DNA of 14,170 bases from Fidelibacterota bacterium (GTDB lineage: Bacteria > Fidelibacterota > Marinisomatia > Marinisomatales > JABMOV01). Position 1 is the stretch's first letter. Each line of letters opens with the position of its first letter. Location of the stretch: contig JBHHUC010000059.1 of NCBI GenBank assembly GCA_046861395.1, positions 1-14,170 on the forward strand, given 5' to 3'. The position numbers and the translations under genes are program-made. Positions 23 to 10,712 of this stretch are shown here, piece after piece. The notes beneath the pieces are model-generated. The model saw only the letters and a program-made list of their open reading frames with translations, made no database searches and had not been told where the DNA came from.

Positions 23-355
23 TCAGTCCCATTCAAATCCCACCACCTTTCCGTTTTCGGGGTTCATTTCCACCGAATTATAATCCTGAATTTCCGGAAC
101 ATAGTAATAATAGATTTTCACACTTCCATCCTCATCCACCCAGACTGAATCCGGGGAGCCCAGCGTTACAATGACTTCCAGGTCCGTGGGACTTTCCTTC
201 AGAAACAGGTAAACGTCATAGGAATTCATGAGTCCCTGAGTATAGGGGGCAGGGAGCCGGTTTTCGGTAGCCGGGATCGGTAAAAGGGGCCGGGGTGCCG
301 GAGGCGCTGAGCAGGTCCAGAGAAAAAGAACCAGCAGGATAGTCTTTTTTGGCAT
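23..355 (-). CDS. Small putative lipoprotein (110 aa), possibly SmpA/OmlA(BamE)-like fold
   Basis: N-terminus MPKK, hydrophobic stretch and lipobox-like LWT-C15, then a Pro-rich linker. The C-terminal half has a 'V..LGSPDSV....YYYY' pattern reminiscent of SmpA/OmlA-type domains. The fold call is inference. Confidence 0.65.
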   Translation of the reverse strand: MPKKTILLVLFLWTCSAPPAPRPLLPIPATENRLPAPYTQGLMNSYDVYLFLKESPTDLEVIVTLGSPDSVWVDEDGSVKIYYYYVPEIQDYNSVEMNPENGKVVGFEWD

Positions 356-1311: not shown

Positions 1312-4300
1312 ATGAAACAACTGTCATTTAGTATTATTCTGCTTTCCTTTTTAACAGCCCAGATCGGTCCCCCGGCGGCCCTCCAATCCGTCACACCCCG
1401 GGTCTTTGCCCTGACTAATGGAATTTTCCATGTGGAACCGGGCCGGAAAATCGATGAAGGTGTCATCCTGCTCCGGGACGGCTTTATTGAAGCGGTGGGT
1501 CCGCGTGTCGATATTCCGGCCGATGCCACCGTGATTGATTTGAAGGGAGGGCATGTTTATGCCGGATTCATTGACGGCTGGTATGAAGTAAAGACGGATG
1601 ACATTGCCCGGACCGCCCAATCGCACTGGATTGATCTGGTTCATCCGGAATGGGTGAGTGCCGATCTTTTCCAACCGGAGAAGAAGGAATTGGAGGCCCT
1701 GCGTTCCATGGGATTCACGACCGTACTGACCGTGCCGGATAAGGGCATTTTCCGGGGCCGGGCTTCATTGATGAGCCTCAGCGATACCCATCCCGCTCTG
1801 GACCCGAATGTGGCTCAGGTCATGGACTTCCAAACCCGCGGCTGGGATGCCAAAGATTATCCCGGTGCCCTGCTGGGTACCATTGCCGTCATGCGACAAA
1901 CCTTTTACGATGCCGATTGGTATGACAAAGCCCAAGCGGTGTATCATAAATATCCGGAGCAAAATGAACCGGTTCCGGTCAATAATGCCCTGGCGGCTGT
2001 GGGAAAGGATAAATCCCTGGCCCGACCCTTTTATTTCCGTACCACATCGGAAATTGCGGCGCTGCGCGCAATTCACCTGTCCCGTGAATTCAACCTGGAC
2101 CTTTGGCTCCTGGGCAGTGGCTTTGAATATCAACGATTGAAGGAAATTACCCAGGTCAACCCCTTTATTGTGATACCCCTGAATTTTCCCGGAAAGCCGG
2201 ATGTGGCCGATCCTTACCGGGCGTTGCAATATCAGACCGACCAACTCCTGCATTGGGATTTGGCACCGGATAATCCGGCCCGGTTGACCGAACGGGGAAT
2301 TCCCCTTGGTCTGACAACCTACGGCTTGAAGGATAAAAAACAATTTCGTAAAAATATCGCGCTGGCAACCCAACGGGGCTGGACGGAAAAATCCGCCCTG
2401 GCCGCTCTCACCACCCAACCGGCCCAGGCCATGGGAAAGAAAGAAATTCTGGGAAAAATTGCCAAGGGTTATCAGGCGAATCTGGTTGTTGTGGACGGAA
2501 ATTATTTTACCGCCGATGCGCCGGTCCGGGCAGTCTGGATTGCCGGCGTGGAATACCCCATTGAACCGGAACCGGACAGGCCGGCCTCGGGTAGCTGGGA
2601 ATTTCATCTCTTCGATCAAACGGCTACACTGACCATAGGCGGTAAATTCCCCAAATTGACATTCACATTCACCTATGATTCGACGGATATCAAGGCCCAC
2701 AATCTGGCCGTCAGCGGCCGCCGTATTTCCTGGACCATCGAAGCGGAAGAATATGGATTTCATGGAGTGACCCAATTCGTGGGACATTTCACACCCCATT
2801 CTCTGACCGGAACAGCTTATTATTCCGATGGCGATGAATTGCCGTTTACGGCTCAATGGCAGTCCAAAACAAAAAACACACAGGATAAGGAGCCACGGGT
2901 TACGCCCAGCGATCTGACCATTACCTATCCCCTGGGTGCTTTCGGATTACCTCAGCCCCCGGACCAGCCCCACGCCATATTAATCAATGATGCAACCCTG
3001 TGGACCTGCAGTGATCAGGGAATTCTCAAGGACTGGGATATGTTGATCCAGGATGGTGTTATTACACGCATTGCCCCTGATATCAGAATTCCCCGGGGTA
3101 GTGCCTTGGTCATCGACGGTCGGGAAAAGCATATTACACCGGGACTCATAGATGCTCACAGTCATACGGCTTCCGCTTCCATCAATGAAGGGACCCAGTC
3201 CGTGACCGCCGAAGTCCGCATCCAGGATGTATTGAATCCCGATGATATCAGCCTTTACCGGCAGCTGGCCGGTGGTTTGACCATTCTCAATTCCCTGCAT
3301 GGATCCGCTAACGTCATCGGAGGACAAAATGCCGTGCTCAAACTTCGCTGGGGTGCTACTGCAGAGGGCCTGATCTATGAAAAAGCGCCACCCGGTATCA
3401 AGTTTGCCCTGGGTGAAAATGTCAAACAATCCAACTGGGGCGATGATTTCAGGACCCGTTATCCTCAAACCCGAATGGGCGTGGAACAGGTGCTGCGGGA
3501 TGCCTTCACCCGGGCCCTGAATTATGAAAAGAACTGGCGAGCCTATCGAAAAAGCACCAAACTCCAAAAGACAAAGGTTCCTCCCCGCCGTGACCTAGAG
3601 CTGGACGCTCTGGTTGAAGTCTTACACGATAAGCGATTGGTTCATTGTCATTCCTACCGCCAGGATGAAATTTTGATGTTGACCCGAGTCGCAGAGGATT
3701 TCGGTTTTACAATCGATATTTTTCAACATGTTCTGGAAGGTTATAAAGTTGCCGATCGCATGGCCGCTCATGGTGCCGGTGGTTCTACTTTTACAGACTG
3801 GTGGGCTTATAAGTTTGAAGTGTATGATGCCATTCCCTATAACGGAAAATTAATGCAGGATGCCGGGGTTGTGGTTTCCTTTAACAGTGATTCCAATGAA
3901 TTGGCCCGAAGGTTGAATCTGGAAGCGGCCAAAGGGGTTAAATACAGCGGTATGACAGAAGAAGAAGCCTTGAAAACCGTCACCCTCAATCCGGCGATTC
4001 AACTGGGCATTGATGAATATGTCGGTTCCCTGGAAGTAGGGAAAGATGCCGATTTCGTCGTGTGGAGCGGACATCCTCTCTCCACCCGCACAGTCTGTGA
4101 AGAAACATGGATCGACGGCCAACAATATTTCTCCCGGAAAAAGAATGAAGAATTGCTGGCCCGGGACACCGACCTCCGTCGTCGTCTGATCCAAAAAATA
4201 TTGCATACGGAAGATGACGATAACCCGGCCATGGAACCTGCTCCAGTCAATCCGGAGGATGACCATTCCTGTCTGGGCCATGACCGGATCACCTGGGAAG

Positions 4301-4314
4301 GAGCCGGACAATGA
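1312..4314 (+). CDS. Probably secreted tandem-domain amidohydrolase-superfamily protein (~1000 aa)
   Basis: Start re-assigned to ATG 1312 (GAGGT at 1304-1308; signal-peptide-like MKQLSFSIILLSFLTAQ). The C-terminal domain has PGLIDAHSH, IKFALGENVK, HCHSYR, FQHVLEG, FNSDS and GSLEVGKDADFVVW. The N-terminal domain has the same scaffold but a degenerate metal motif (AGFIDGW). Confidence 0.9.
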   Translation: MKQLSFSIILLSFLTAQIGPPAALQSVTPRVFALTNGIFHVEPGRKIDEGVILLRDGFIEAVGPRVDIPADATVIDLKGGHVYAGFIDGWYEVKTDDIARTAQSHWIDLVHPEWVSADLFQPEKKELEALRSMGFTTVLTVPDKGIFRGRASLMSLSDTHPALDPNVAQVMDFQTRGWDAKDYPGALLGTIAVMRQTFYDADWYDKAQAVYHKYPEQNEPVPVNNALAAVGKDKSLARPFYFRTTSEIAALRAIHLSREFNLDLWLLGSGFEYQRLKEITQVNPFIVIPLNFPGKPDVADPYRALQYQTDQLLHWDLAPDNPARLTERGIPLGLTTYGLKDKKQFRKNIALATQRGWTEKSALAALTTQPAQAMGKKEILGKIAKGYQANLVVVDGNYFTADAPVRAVWIAGVEYPIEPEPDRPASGSWEFHLFDQTATLTIGGKFPKLTFTFTYDSTDIKAHNLAVSGRRISWTIEAEEYGFHGVTQFVGHFTPHSLTGTAYYSDGDELPFTAQWQSKTKNTQDKEPRVTPSDLTITYPLGAFGLPQPPDQPHAILINDATLWTCSDQGILKDWDMLIQDGVITRIAPDIRIPRGSALVIDGREKHITPGLIDAHSHTASASINEGTQSVTAEVRIQDVLNPDDISLYRQLAGGLTILNSLHGSANVIGGQNAVLKLRWGATAEGLIYEKAPPGIKFALGENVKQSNWGDDFRTRYPQTRMGVEQVLRDAFTRALNYEKNWRAYRKSTKLQKTKVPPRRDLELDALVEVLHDKRLVHCHSYRQDEILMLTRVAEDFGFTIDIFQHVLEGYKVADRMAAHGAGGSTFTDWWAYKFEVYDAIPYNGKLMQDAGVVVSFNSDSNELARRLNLEAAKGVKYSGMTEEEALKTVTLNPAIQLGIDEYVGSLEVGKDADFVVWSGHPLSTRTVCEETWIDGQQYFSRKKNEELLARDTDLRRRLIQKILHTEDDDNPAMEPAPVNPEDDHSCLGHDRITWEGAGQ

Positions 4315-5630
4315 AACGAATACTCTTTTTGCTCTTCTCGCTCCTGATTGCTTCCGATCAAATACCCGCTCCCAGACAGGATCATCCCATCCTGATCCAG
4401 GGCGGAACCATACATACCGTCAGTGGAAGAAACCTGCCGCAAACGGATATTCTGTTTGAAAATGGCATCATCACCCGGATTGAAAAGCATATTCAACCGG
4501 AACCGGACATGGCAGTCATCGATGCCACGGACCGTCATATCTATCCCGGTTTGATTGCCAGTGTTTCAACCATGGGACTGGTGGAAGTCGGAGCCGTCCG
4601 GGCCACCGCGGATTATAATGAAGTCGGTTCCGTTACACCGGAAGTCCGGGCAAATGTGAGTTATAATCCCGATTCTGAAATCATTCCCGTTACCCGATCC
4701 AACGGTGTCCTGTTTGCCAATGTCATGCCCAAAGGTGGTCGGATTCCGGGACAGTCTTCCCTCATGATGCTGGATGGCTGGACTTGGGAAGAGGCTACCT
4801 TTAACCATCCCACTGCTCTGCATATTGTGTGGCCCGGAATGTGGCTGAATCTCAACCCGAATGCCAAGAAATCCGTTCCGGAGCAGGAAAAGGCGATCCG
4901 GGAAGCCTTAACAGAACTGGACCGGTTATTTGATAAGGTCATTCAATATAAGAAAATACAGGATCATCCGCCCCGGGCCCGAAACGTAAACTGGCAACAG
5001 GATATTCGCCTGGAAACCATGATTCCCTATGTCCTGGGGGAAAAAAGAATTTTCATCCATGCCAATGATTTGCGCCAGATTGAATCTGCCGTAAACTGGG
5101 CCCTGAAACGCAACATCGACATTGCCATCGTCGGTGGTGCTGATGCCTGGCGCGTGGCTGATCTGTTGAAACAACACCAGATACCGGTGATTATCGAAGG
5201 TATTTTACGTGTTCCTTACCGCCGTTTTGAAGATTATGATGCCGCCTATGCCTTGCCGCGGAAATTATTTGAGAAAGGAGTGCCGTATTGTATATCCACA
5301 GCCGGAAATCCCTTCCAGGCGCCACATGGTCGTGATTTACCCAATCATGCCGCCATGGCAGCCGCCTTCGGCCTGCCGCCGCAGGAAGCCCTCCGGGCCA
5401 TTACCCTGTATCCGGCCCGCATTCTGGGAGTAGCCGACCGCATCGGATCACTGGAAGTGGGAAAGGAAGCGTCTCTATTCATCGCCACCGGGGATATCCT
5501 GGAGATCACCACCACGGTCGAACAGGATTTCATCCAGGGACGAAAAATTGATATGAATGATAAACACAAAATGCTGTATCGGAAATATCAGGAAAAATAT
5601 AAACAATTAGGAATTTTAGGGGATAATTGA
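4311..5630 (+). CDS. Probably secreted amidohydrolase-superfamily protein lacking the HxH metal motif
   Basis: Signal-peptide-like N-terminus; IQGGTIHTV, IDATDRHIYPGLI, ALRAITLYPARILG, GSLEVGKEASL. ATGA overlap with the upstream gene. Confidence 0.88.
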   Translation: MKRILFLLFSLLIASDQIPAPRQDHPILIQGGTIHTVSGRNLPQTDILFENGIITRIEKHIQPEPDMAVIDATDRHIYPGLIASVSTMGLVEVGAVRATADYNEVGSVTPEVRANVSYNPDSEIIPVTRSNGVLFANVMPKGGRIPGQSSLMMLDGWTWEEATFNHPTALHIVWPGMWLNLNPNAKKSVPEQEKAIREALTELDRLFDKVIQYKKIQDHPPRARNVNWQQDIRLETMIPYVLGEKRIFIHANDLRQIESAVNWALKRNIDIAIVGGADAWRVADLLKQHQIPVIIEGILRVPYRRFEDYDAAYALPRKLFEKGVPYCISTAGNPFQAPHGRDLPNHAAMAAAFGLPPQEALRAITLYPARILGVADRIGSLEVGKEASLFIATGDILEITTTVEQDFIQGRKIDMNDKHKMLYRKYQEKYKQLGILGDN

Positions 5631-6433
5631 TGGAGTTTAATGCGATCGTTAGTCAACGAATTGAGGTTTCACCCGATTTGATCATTCTACGGATTGTCCC
5701 GGACAATTGGGAATTACCGGACTTTTATGCCGGACAATTTGCCGTGTTGGGATTGCCTGAATCAGCCCGACGGACGGCCTTTGCCGACCGGGAACCGGAT
5801 ACGGACTCTGCCAAACCCATAAAAAGGGCATATTCCATTGCCTCCTCTTCGCGCAATAAGGAATATATCGAATTTTACATTACCCTGGTTCGGTCCGGCA
5901 AACTGACACCGCGTCTGTTTGCGCTCAAACCGGGCGACAAAATATTTCTGGGAAAAAAGTTCACCGGGATGTTTACCATGGACATGCTCACCGGAGAACC
6001 AAATATTTTACTTATCGGCACCGGAACAGGTCTCGCGCCTTATATGAGCATGCTGCGCACCCATCTGGTGTGTGGCGGTCCCCGACGGTTTGGCATTCTC
6101 CACGGCGCCCGGCACTCCTGGGACCTAGGATACCGATCGGAACTTATTACACTGAAACACATGTGTACCAATGTGACCTATTTACCGGTGATCAGCCGGC
6201 CCAAGGAGGAAGTAACACCCTGGGGCGGTATGGTTGGTTATGTTCAGGATGCCTGGGAATCCCGAGATCTAAGGGAATCCTGGGGTGGTGAACCATCACC
6301 TACCGATACCCACGTTTTTCTCTGTGGCGGACCGGCCATGGTGGACGATATGTGTTCCCGCCTGGAAGTAGCCGGATTTACTGAGCATACCAAGAAAAAT
6401 CCCGGTAACATTCACGTGGAACGGTACTGGTAA
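5630..6433 (+). CDS. fpr: Bacterial-type ferredoxin/flavodoxin-NADP+ reductase
   Basis: FAD motif RAYSIAS, GKLTPRL, NAD(P) motif GTGTGLAPYMSM, FLCGGPAMV, and C-terminal HVERYW similar to the E. coli Fpr EHYW end. TGATG overlap with the upstream stop; AGGGGA RBS at 5618-5623 (TTG 5627 is an alternative start). Confidence 0.88.
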   Translation: MEFNAIVSQRIEVSPDLIILRIVPDNWELPDFYAGQFAVLGLPESARRTAFADREPDTDSAKPIKRAYSIASSSRNKEYIEFYITLVRSGKLTPRLFALKPGDKIFLGKKFTGMFTMDMLTGEPNILLIGTGTGLAPYMSMLRTHLVCGGPRRFGILHGARHSWDLGYRSELITLKHMCTNVTYLPVISRPKEEVTPWGGMVGYVQDAWESRDLRESWGGEPSPTDTHVFLCGGPAMVDDMCSRLEVAGFTEHTKKNPGNIHVERYW

Positions 6434-6435
6434 GC

Positions 6436-6996
6436 ATGGCCTGGATCCGAACGACTGAAGGCCAGGAATCGGATCGTTACCTGTCTCGTTTAATTGCCCG
6501 CCATGCCGATCGGGAAACTGGTCGATTGGATCATATTCTGGCCATTCATGGTCAGGACCCGCCCACGATGGAGGATCATCTTCGTTTATATAAACGACTC
6601 ATGTATGGCGAATCGGAATTGACACGGACCCAGCGGGAAATGATTGCAGTGGCCGTTTCGGTGGAAAATCGTTGCCATTACTGAATAACACATCACGGAG
6701 AGGCTCTCCGCAGAACCAAAATGTCTGACGATATGATCTCTTCACTGCTCCGGGGACAAACACCAGCCAAATTGGGAAGGCCCGACAAGAACATTCTCAG
6801 ATACGCCCGCAAACTCACTGCCCAACCCTGGACCGTCACCGAAGAAGATGTCCAGGAACTACGTGCATCCGGATTTTCCGACAAAGCCATTCTGCAGATC
6901 AATCTGGTCGTTGATTATTTTAATTTTGTCAACCGGTTGGCCAGCGGGCTAGGCGTGGAACTGGAGCCTTATTGGTCCGGGAAAGAGAAGCAATAA
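6436..6996 (+). CDS. AhpD/CMD-like peroxidase-related protein, probable selenoprotein (CxxU; Sec codon TGA at 6682-6684), 186 aa
   Basis: ORFs 6436-6684 and 6721-6996 share a frame with no other stop between them. Read-through gives LTRTQREMIAVAVSVENRCHY-U-ITHHGEALR...LRYARKLT..P..VTEEDVQELRASGFSD...YFNFVNRLASGLG. This matches the 'REMIAVxVS..NxCxYC..xHG..LR ... FN..NR' pattern of peroxidase-related AhpD-core proteins. A SECIS-like hairpin lies downstream of the TGA. Confidence 0.88.
6696..6710 (+). promoter_or_regulatory. Putative bacterial SECIS element (upper stem-loop)
   Basis: CGGAGA-GGC-TCTCCG: perfect 6-bp stem with a G-starting apical loop, separated from the in-frame TGA by 11 nt (ATAACACATCA). 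Confidence 0.72.
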
Positions 6997-7572
6997 ATGG
7001 AGCCGAAACGCTGTCCCTGGCCCGGATCTGATCCTGCCATGGTGGCCTACCATGATAAGGAATGGGGAACACCATGTCATGACGATCGGTTATGGTTCGA
7101 ATTTATTACTCTGGATGCTTTCCAGGCCGGACTCAGTTGGCAAATTGTTCTTAACAAACGGGAAGGTTTTCGCAAAGCTTTTGACGATTTCCAACCGGAA
7201 ATAATTGTAAACTATTCGGCTGCCAGACAGGAAGGGTTGCGCCGGAATCCCGAAATTATCCGGAACCGCCTTAAAATCGCTGCAACGGTTTCCAACGCCG
7301 AAGCTTTTCTTAGGGTAAAGGAGGAATTCGGTTCTTTCGACTCTTACATCTGGCAGTTTACCGCTGGCAAGCCGATACAAAATACCTGGAAATCCCAGGA
7401 TGAGGTCCCCGCCTCTACCCCGCTCAGTGATCGAATCAGTCAGGATTTGAAAAAGCAGGGATTCAAATTTGTTGGCACAACCATTGTCTATGCCTTTTTA
7501 CAGGGTGCTGGGATTGTTAATGATCACCTTGTGACCTGTTTCCGATATAAGGAATTGTGCGAAAAAATTTAG
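6997..7572 (+). CDS. tag: DNA-3-methyladenine glycosylase I
   Basis: RCPW, YHDKEWG, FQAGLSW, IIRNRLKI, GFKFVG, GIVNDHLVTCF, with the Cys/His/His/Cys zinc ligands present. Starts immediately after the upstream TAA. Confidence 0.96.
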   Translation: MEPKRCPWPGSDPAMVAYHDKEWGTPCHDDRLWFEFITLDAFQAGLSWQIVLNKREGFRKAFDDFQPEIIVNYSAARQEGLRRNPEIIRNRLKIAATVSNAEAFLRVKEEFGSFDSYIWQFTAGKPIQNTWKSQDEVPASTPLSDRISQDLKKQGFKFVGTTIVYAFLQGAGIVNDHLVTCFRYKELCEKI

Positions 7573-10022: not shown

Positions 10023-10712
10023 TTACAACCGGATACCAAGGATGGAACGAAACATGAATTCCGGTTGGTCCGTTGCAGTACTAAGGATTATCAGGGACCC
10101 CACGGCAATATAGCGTTTTTCATTTCCATGAGATATGACCGGCCCGATATAATGCCCCGCTTCGCTTCCCTTTATTTCCAGACCCAATTTCACTAATTCC
10201 GAAATTTCATAGGTCAAACCGGCTGTGTAGAAGGCCTCCGTTTCCCGGGACGGCAGACTCCATTCCAAACCGGGATTCACGGCCCAGATGATGTTATGCC
10301 AGGTCCGTGATAAAACAAATTTTCCTTCCACGGTTTGATTGACAAAGGAAGGGGTAGCCTGGTACTCCAGATACAAAAGGGGATCAGCCCCCAATACGCT
10401 ACCTCGGGACAGGCGGTAACGGAAGCGGACTTTGAATTTATCATATGCCAGAGCAGCATTTTTTATTTGTGAAAATTGCTGATAGATGCCCACATCAAAG
10501 GTACGTGTCATCCCGATTTCCAGTTCCATATTGTGAATGACGATATAATCCCTGTCAAAATGATTTTTATCTCTATAAACGGTAGTAAAATAATGTTCAA
10601 ATTCCGCATCGCCAGGGGCCATTGTCATTGCTTCATAGGTCCATACAAAACTGCGGTTATCGGACCACAGAACCGAAAATGATAAAAGAATAAGCGTTAT
10701 TGTTGTACGCAT
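10023..10712 (-). CDS. Exported hypothetical protein, probable outer-membrane beta-barrel
   Basis: Signal-peptide-like N-terminus; many alternating polar/hydrophobic strands (MELEIGMT, KVRFRYRL, PLLYLEYQ, YTAGLTYEI, KLGLEIKG, FRSILGIRL at the C-terminus). AAGGA RBS at 10721-10725 on the minus strand. Confidence 0.72.
   Translation of the reverse strand: MRTTITLILLSFSVLWSDNRSFVWTYEAMTMAPGDAEFEHYFTTVYRDKNHFDRDYIVIHNMELEIGMTRTFDVGIYQQFSQIKNAALAYDKFKVRFRYRLSRGSVLGADPLLYLEYQATPSFVNQTVEGKFVLSRTWHNIIWAVNPGLEWSLPSRETEAFYTAGLTYEISELVKLGLEIKGSEAGHYIGPVISHGNEKRYIAVGSLIILSTATDQPEFMFRSILGIRL

Follow-up and report, generated by a model that had tools for sequence, protein, structure and literature searches.

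An AhpD-like gene with an in-frame TGA in a Fidelibacterota genome: a well-supported member of a predicted selenoprotein family

Background

AhpD-like selenoproteins carrying a CxxU motif have been predicted from environmental sequence data, as an earlier note on the DNA studied here had claimed. The family was first reported in 2005 with 27 Sargasso sequences (PMC1088965), and 'AhpD-like 1' (COG2128), with 299 sequences in 37 GOS samples, was the fourth most common selenoprotein family there (PMC2398784). In Table 1 of PMC13188914 the row 'AhpD-like protein, TIGR01926, CxxU' stands under 'Predicted with high confidence', and BSepDB has a page for the family (PMC13326102). CxxU within an AhpD core also occurs in NF041238 (CFYUT), NF053654 (YciW-related), CMD-like PF02627 and NF041047. 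Our literature search, conducted mostly outside subscription journals and in main texts, returned no biochemical study of the Sec form.

The fold, CxYC motif and Glu/His relay of the protein described below are also those of the PDB entries 6K40 (D. radiodurans, presumably DR_1765), 3C1L (Mlr4105), 2PFX, 2OYO and 2PRR. Relay residues have been described for PA0269 (E36/C48/Y50/C51/H55) and for M. tuberculosis AhpD (E118/C130/H132/C133/H137) (PMC3141380, PMC6300522).

Here we describe a gene of this kind in a window of 14,170 nucleotides (the whole stretch of DNA that was analysed) from a 94% complete Fidelibacterota genome (G000). Records with this stretch are labelled hydrothermal vent metagenome and stem from one sample; no RNA record is among them. 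The locus shares its HMM family, the CxxU motif, the single Sec, a downstream bSECIS and the marine setting with the known AhpD-like CxxU selenoproteins; there is no difference in kind, and the organism alone appears to be new. Judged from its sequence, the gene appears to be a real and well-supported member, with a compact SECIS, of this known predicted family. For annotation it matters that standard callers split or mistranslate the gene and that its nearest matches in the protein database have W in place of Sec. The gene is a clean addition to a selenoprotein family that is abundant in marine settings and still predicted-only in a May 2026 review, and it is also a reasonable candidate for a first biochemical test; this would reveal the attacking position of the CxxC in TIGR01926 proteins.

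Gene structure

The gene lies on the forward strand at 6436..6996. Its frame runs from ATG 6436 to TAA 6994-6996 with one internal TGA at 6682-6684 (forward strand), and yields 186 aa when this codon is read as U. In the AhpD CxxC the TGA takes the place of the second Cys (C80-H-Y-U83), with U83 lying within NRCHY-U-ITHHGEALR, and both motif alignment and conservation mark it as a selenocysteine codon. The ORF finder reported two ORFs, 6436-6684 (82 aa) and 6721-6996 (91 aa). Much of this had been put forward in the earlier note: the placement of the TGA at the second motif Cys agrees with the sequence and with the pairing of Cys and TGA among relatives, and the frame open to TAA 6994-6996 is confirmed by translation. 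Its statement that ATG 6721 has no well-spaced SD also holds, as the single GGAG upstream ends 20 nt before this codon and, read from the sequence, lies within the hairpin stem described below.

Profile HMMs, a structure model and Foldseek identify the product as an AhpD-like or peroxidase-related protein (TIGR01926, PF02627). With U read as C, the full read-through protein scores 123.6 bits against TIGR01926, above the curated cut-off of 81.8, and it also passes TIGR00778, PF02627 and PF04636 (sestrin; above the gathering score). The two halves taken separately reach 39.1 bits (model positions 23-81) and 63.8 bits (84-175), both below the cut-off. They are contiguous parts of a single TIGR01926 model, and homology thus extends to both sides of the TGA. 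Membership of NF041238 (48.2 bits against a cut-off of 175) and of NF053654 (21.2 bits against 310) was rejected, and a profile search of the protein with NF041047 gave no match.

We conclude that the mid-gene 'stop' almost certainly codes for selenocysteine and that the gene gives one whole enzyme. On the sequence evidence, decoding of UGA 6682 as Sec via SelB and a SECIS element is very probable.

SECIS element

A candidate bacterial SECIS hairpin lies on the forward strand at 6696..6710, 17 nt past the TGA, with a 6-bp stem (6696-6701/6705-6710), a GGC loop (6702-6704) and a folding energy of -7.8 kcal/mol; it is absent from the earlier note. Published bSECIS criteria comprise a loop of 3-9 nt with G within its initial two positions, a stem of 4-16 bp, a spacing of 16-37 nt and an MFE of at most -7.5 (PMC13188914). 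The hairpin falls within all four, its energy only just. Its stability is not unusual when compared to shuffles (z-scores 0.26, -0.62, 0.53, -1.47 and 1.42), and 7% of synonymous recodings fold equally well.

Comparison among loci is more informative at the level of codons. With 16 of the 17 TGA loci from the order compared, 81% of stem cells are paired, against 37-62% in slid controls, and two-sided covariation in TGA loci is no better than in shuffles (84/500 and 73/500). Among the distinct TGA loci in the matches listed, Gly+5 is encoded by GGR in 87 of 93 (background 0.37), Leu+8 by CTY in 89 of 91 (0.39) and Gly/Ala+7 by NNT in 74 of 93 (0.19), and each of these biases is what pairing of the stem requires. 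The comparison thus points to strong constraint on the synonymous positions of the hairpin across the 93 TGA loci, which are mutually related and were chosen with a pattern that overlaps the stem in part. A search of 401 genomes for a matched Cys-form control of this codon bias yielded none (0/401); Cys homologues on plasmids were left out of the comparison, and the protein collection holds many Cys forms with HHGEAL. The mean folding energy past the codon is -6.7 in the 17 TGA loci versus -2.6 in nine Cys loci. One metagenome locus (L047) has a TGC (Cys) form that retains the full hairpin, and may reflect a recent switch from Sec to Cys that left a relic SECIS behind.

Protein fold and predicted function

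The structure model, made with C at position 83, is all-helical with a pLDDT of 91.6. Foldseek returned TM scores of 0.82-0.89 to 3C1L, 2PFX, 6K40, 2OYO and 2PRR, the top match being 6K40 (0.89), and the sequence matches agree. In the aligned entries 3C1L, 2PFX and 6K40 (23-31% identity) the second motif position is Cys, whereas it is Sec here. The codons of the putative proton-relay helix-turn-helix (E68, C80, Y82, U83 and H87) lie on the forward strand at 6637..6696. By sequence spacing these five residues stand at a constant offset to the five relay positions of both PA0269 and M. tuberculosis AhpD, even though PA0269 matches the protein only weakly (E 5e-05). Across 120 aligned sequences E68, Y82 and H86 are invariant and C80, C83 and H87 are conserved in at least 90%. 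The sequence has no signal peptide. The N-terminal domain of Sestrin2 and Bmp8 share the fold (TM 0.71-0.77); Sestrin2 keeps the first Cys alone, whereas the gene here has both C80 and U83.

Taken together, this suggests that the protein is likely a selenol/thiol oxidoreductase of the cytoplasm that acts on peroxides or on oxidised thiols. The reading that we favour, and hold to be likely, is that of one gene encoding one 186-aa selenoprotein whose redox role depends on cycling via a C80-U83 selenenylsulfide. Here we infer Sec incorporation, the attacking residue, the substrate and the electron donor: SelB with Sec-tRNA(Sec) would bind the mRNA hairpin at 6696-6710, UGA 6682 would then be decoded as Sec83, and translation would go on to TAA 6994. 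An E68-(water)-H87 relay together with the C80-x-x-U83 pair would support cycling between selenol/thiol and selenenylsulfide. Sec83 would most likely be the centre that attacks hydroperoxides or oxidised protein thiols, with Cys80 resolving the Sec83 intermediate, and regeneration could come from a cellular reductant, namely thioredoxin/TrxR, lipoamide/Lpd or, in the family of G000 and G003, the adjacent Fpr. Both TrxR and Lpd are present in the genome.

The proposed attack by Sec83 draws on two pieces of background: as a general rule Sec occupies the nucleophilic position, and Cys133 of M. tuberculosis AhpD is the residue activated by His137. In Sestrin2, however, the first Cys alone is kept and is catalytic (PMC4674687), which leaves Sec83 as a likely nucleophile but not a certain one. 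For Cys-containing relatives, H2O2 reduction by PA0269 is described as weak and the substrates of the family as not known (PMC3141380), and a D. radiodurans AhpD-like mutant is, as related second-hand in PMC8945050, sensitive to H2O2, with both Cys needed.

It is possible, if somewhat doubtful, that the same selenoprotein mainly serves as an AhpD-type adaptor, re-reducing a peroxiredoxin with electrons from lipoamide/Lpd and not being itself a peroxidase. The M. tuberculosis chain NADH-Lpd-DlaT-AhpD-AhpC would be the model for this (PMC12028322), and the genome does hold Lpd-family matches (three of four above cut-off), a peroxiredoxin on contig C128 (136 bits, below the 272 bits required for AhpC) and, on C106, a putatively Sec-containing BCP-like protein. 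Nonetheless, no AhpC above the cut-off is found in the 94% complete genome or adjacent to the AhpD-like gene, and the window holds no peroxiredoxin neighbour. Visual inspection of the commonest neighbour clusters likewise showed no peroxiredoxin; a few Trx/Prx-fold ORFs are found close to 5 and 2 of the 93 loci. Moreover, the TIGR01926 topology is unlike that of M. tuberculosis AhpD, which has its motif C-terminally and serves AhpC, a partner usually encoded next to it.

A non-peroxide substrate of the selenoprotein, for example a halogenated compound (as in Bmp8-like debromination) or another electrophile, possibly with electrons fed by Fpr, is improbable. It would fit the match to the fold of what we take, from the PDB title, to be the debrominase Bmp8 (TM 0.76-0.77, 20% identity), presumably an enzyme of different chemistry, as well as the weak peroxidase activity and open substrate range noted above for PA0269 and its family, and the tight coupling of fpr in G000 and G003. 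The CxxC peroxidase-related structures are closer, however (TM 0.82-0.89, about 28-30% identity), and linkage to fpr is confined to 2 of 27 motif loci, with no case among the 120 metagenome loci listed, about half of which reach 600 nt past the gene. In its most specific form, a dedicated NADPH-Fpr-to-selenol relay in the G000/G003 lineage, with the translationally coupled upstream reductase and acting on a halogenated or otherwise electrophilic non-peroxide substrate, this would be a long shot; if true, it would give a widespread selenoprotein family its first defined pathway.

Genomic context

Directly upstream, on the forward strand at 5627..6433, lies a gene resembling ferredoxin/flavodoxin-NADP reductase (fpr; best profile NF008178, under cut-off), which stops 2 nt before the AhpD-like start, and its product is a possible electron donor. 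A gene for 3-methyladenine DNA glycosylase (Tag) follows at 6997..7572 on the same strand, with its ATG directly after the read-through TAA, and is probably in the same operon. Neither Fpr nor Tag is retained as a conserved partner: both are adjacent in G000 and G003 only, and tblastn gave no match in the 120 metagenome loci listed. Two tandem amidohydrolase-family genes with overlapping stop and start occupy 1312-5630 and are probably the first genes of an operon that continues through fpr and the AhpD-like gene to tag. Elsewhere in the window, a 229-aa ORF on the minus strand (10023-10712) has a signal-peptide-like start and no Pfam match, and looks like an outer-membrane protein.

Selenocysteine machinery

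The favoured selenoprotein reading implies Sec machinery elsewhere in the genome, and selA, selB, selC and selD are indeed all present, as had been expected in the earlier note. In profile searches selA is found on C75 (525.7 bits, above cut-off) and is directly followed by the N-terminal half of selB, which is also above cut-off and is cut short where the contig ends; C58 opens with a C-terminal part of selB, so that this gene is broken into two pieces at contig ends. The selD gene scores above cut-off and carries an in-frame TGA of its own. A tRNA-Sec (UCA) on C78 is detected by ARAGORN and by Rfam RF01852 (67.5 bits versus 47).

Inspection by eye of two lists, with 1434 and 334 in-frame TGAs, yielded at least seven further Sec candidates: four thioredoxin-fold UxxC proteins, a SelW-like protein, a BCP-like peroxiredoxin and SelD. 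Their sites are on C1 (7800-10400; L037), C65 (L039), C8 (L038), C76 (L040), C106 (L041) and C70 (L004). All seven of these hand-picked candidates have a G-loop hairpin 16-21 nt past the TGA, and four share the 17-nt spacing and 3-nt loop. A T9SS type A sorting domain is present in three of the four thioredoxin-fold candidates, which in this resemble secreted selenoproteins, and one of the four partially matches the model of an Omp28-related selenoprotein.

Systems with a Cys-charged UCA tRNA exist, and the same SECIS/SelB recoding could in principle insert Cys. As C is found in 108 of the best 120 protein homologues, Cys would be tolerated at position 83. Such a reading is very improbable here, given that the sole UCA tRNA is a full-length match to the Rfam tRNA-Sec and that selA and selD are intact.

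Conservation of the TGA codon

A survey of 61 genomes of the same order gave a match in 23, with 28 loci (L034, a duplicate protein, was omitted from the counts). The motif could be located in 25 loci and has TGA at the second Cys in 17 and TGC/TGT in 8; the remaining three are two views of a frameshifted TGA copy in G005 and one weak match. The 17 TGA loci span 13 genomes and 5 families, G000 included. When G005 is added, selA is found in 13 of the 14 TGA-bearing genomes and selB in the other (G056). Since selA is present in 54 of the 61 relatives, including 7 of the 8 Cys-form genomes, this co-occurrence has no discriminating power. Five members of family f13 (genomes of about 1 Mb) were searched and showed no selA above cut-off and at most a weak match to the AhpD-like gene. 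Three related loci were found in named genomes.

In metagenomes, a scan for CHY-TGN-xx-HHGE[G/A], with the codon left open, gave at least 120 loci, all homologous by blastp, and the matches listed comprise 118 with TGA, 2 with TGC and none with TGG; because TGA forms had served to design the pattern, the ratio of 118:2 is valid for that subgroup only. In the protein collection, the best 120 matches have C at this position in 108 cases, W in 6 and R in 1 (P0008), with 5 unparsed. W is found in P0002-P0005, P0074 and P0107, which include the four best matches. Judged from the protein records, these W residues probably reflect TGA codons wrongly translated with code 4, as none of the 120 DNA matches listed has TGG. 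A quick tree, drawn without the partial L023, joins TGA and W forms in one group together with six Cys rows (support 92, not starred); a single origin is therefore not demonstrated by this tree.

Four genomes (G011, G012, G025 and G037) each have two Sec-form paralogues, one of HHGEG type and one of SHGDD/HVED type. Cys forms within the order have HSEP-like residues at this place, a pattern that agrees with an influence of the SECIS on the protein sequence. Loci L023 (G045) and L029 (G025), from different families, encode the same protein over their shared part and have a near-identical downstream gene, pointing to either bin contamination or recent transfer.

These data also bear on a pseudogene, an assembly error or two half-proteins made separately. 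ATG 6721 could start a 91-aa product, and the G005 copy is frameshifted just past its TGA. Nonetheless, such readings are hardly credible and are largely refuted by conservation. The earlier note had named a TGA unique to this strain as pointing to a pseudogene; the identical codon occurs in 13 genomes and in 118 of the 120 metagenome matches listed. Differences between G000 and G003 are mostly at third positions on both sides (39/80 upstream and 58/116 downstream of the TGA), and splitting the protein would lose the second redox residue and H87. In public reads, a contig from run X1 that covers 5600-6811 spans the site with the same TGA and no listed internal difference; the run may be the source sample and hence not independent. 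Runs X2-X4 gave no contig matching the stretch. As for the frameshifted TGA copy itself (G005:C20; L027, L033), its shift lies a few codons past the TGA, and it is either a decaying gene or an assembly error.

Use of TGA as a stop codon

Site-specific recoding presupposes that TGA is a normal stop elsewhere, as the earlier note had argued from stops in the window at 23-25 (minus strand), 4312-4314 and 5628-5630, all of which we verified as TGA. In the genome, TGA terminates 415 of the 1063 ORFs of at least 300 aa, a mechanical set with spurious ORFs included, and the median read-through is 14 codons. A single tRNA-Trp was found, with anticodon CCA, and a profile search for prfB returned fragments, all below cut-off, where C57 and C113 end. 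In several relatives TGA is found at the motif and again at the terminal stop. A code 4 organism, in which TGA is unused as a stop, was accordingly rejected for a genome and window whose genes end in TGA. Reading the TGA as Trp would agree with the W in 6 of the best 120 database homologues, the four best among them, but given these stops and the lack of TGG among the 120 DNA matches listed its probability is negligible. A second TGA in the G037 match was considered as a second Sec and turned out to be the terminal stop.
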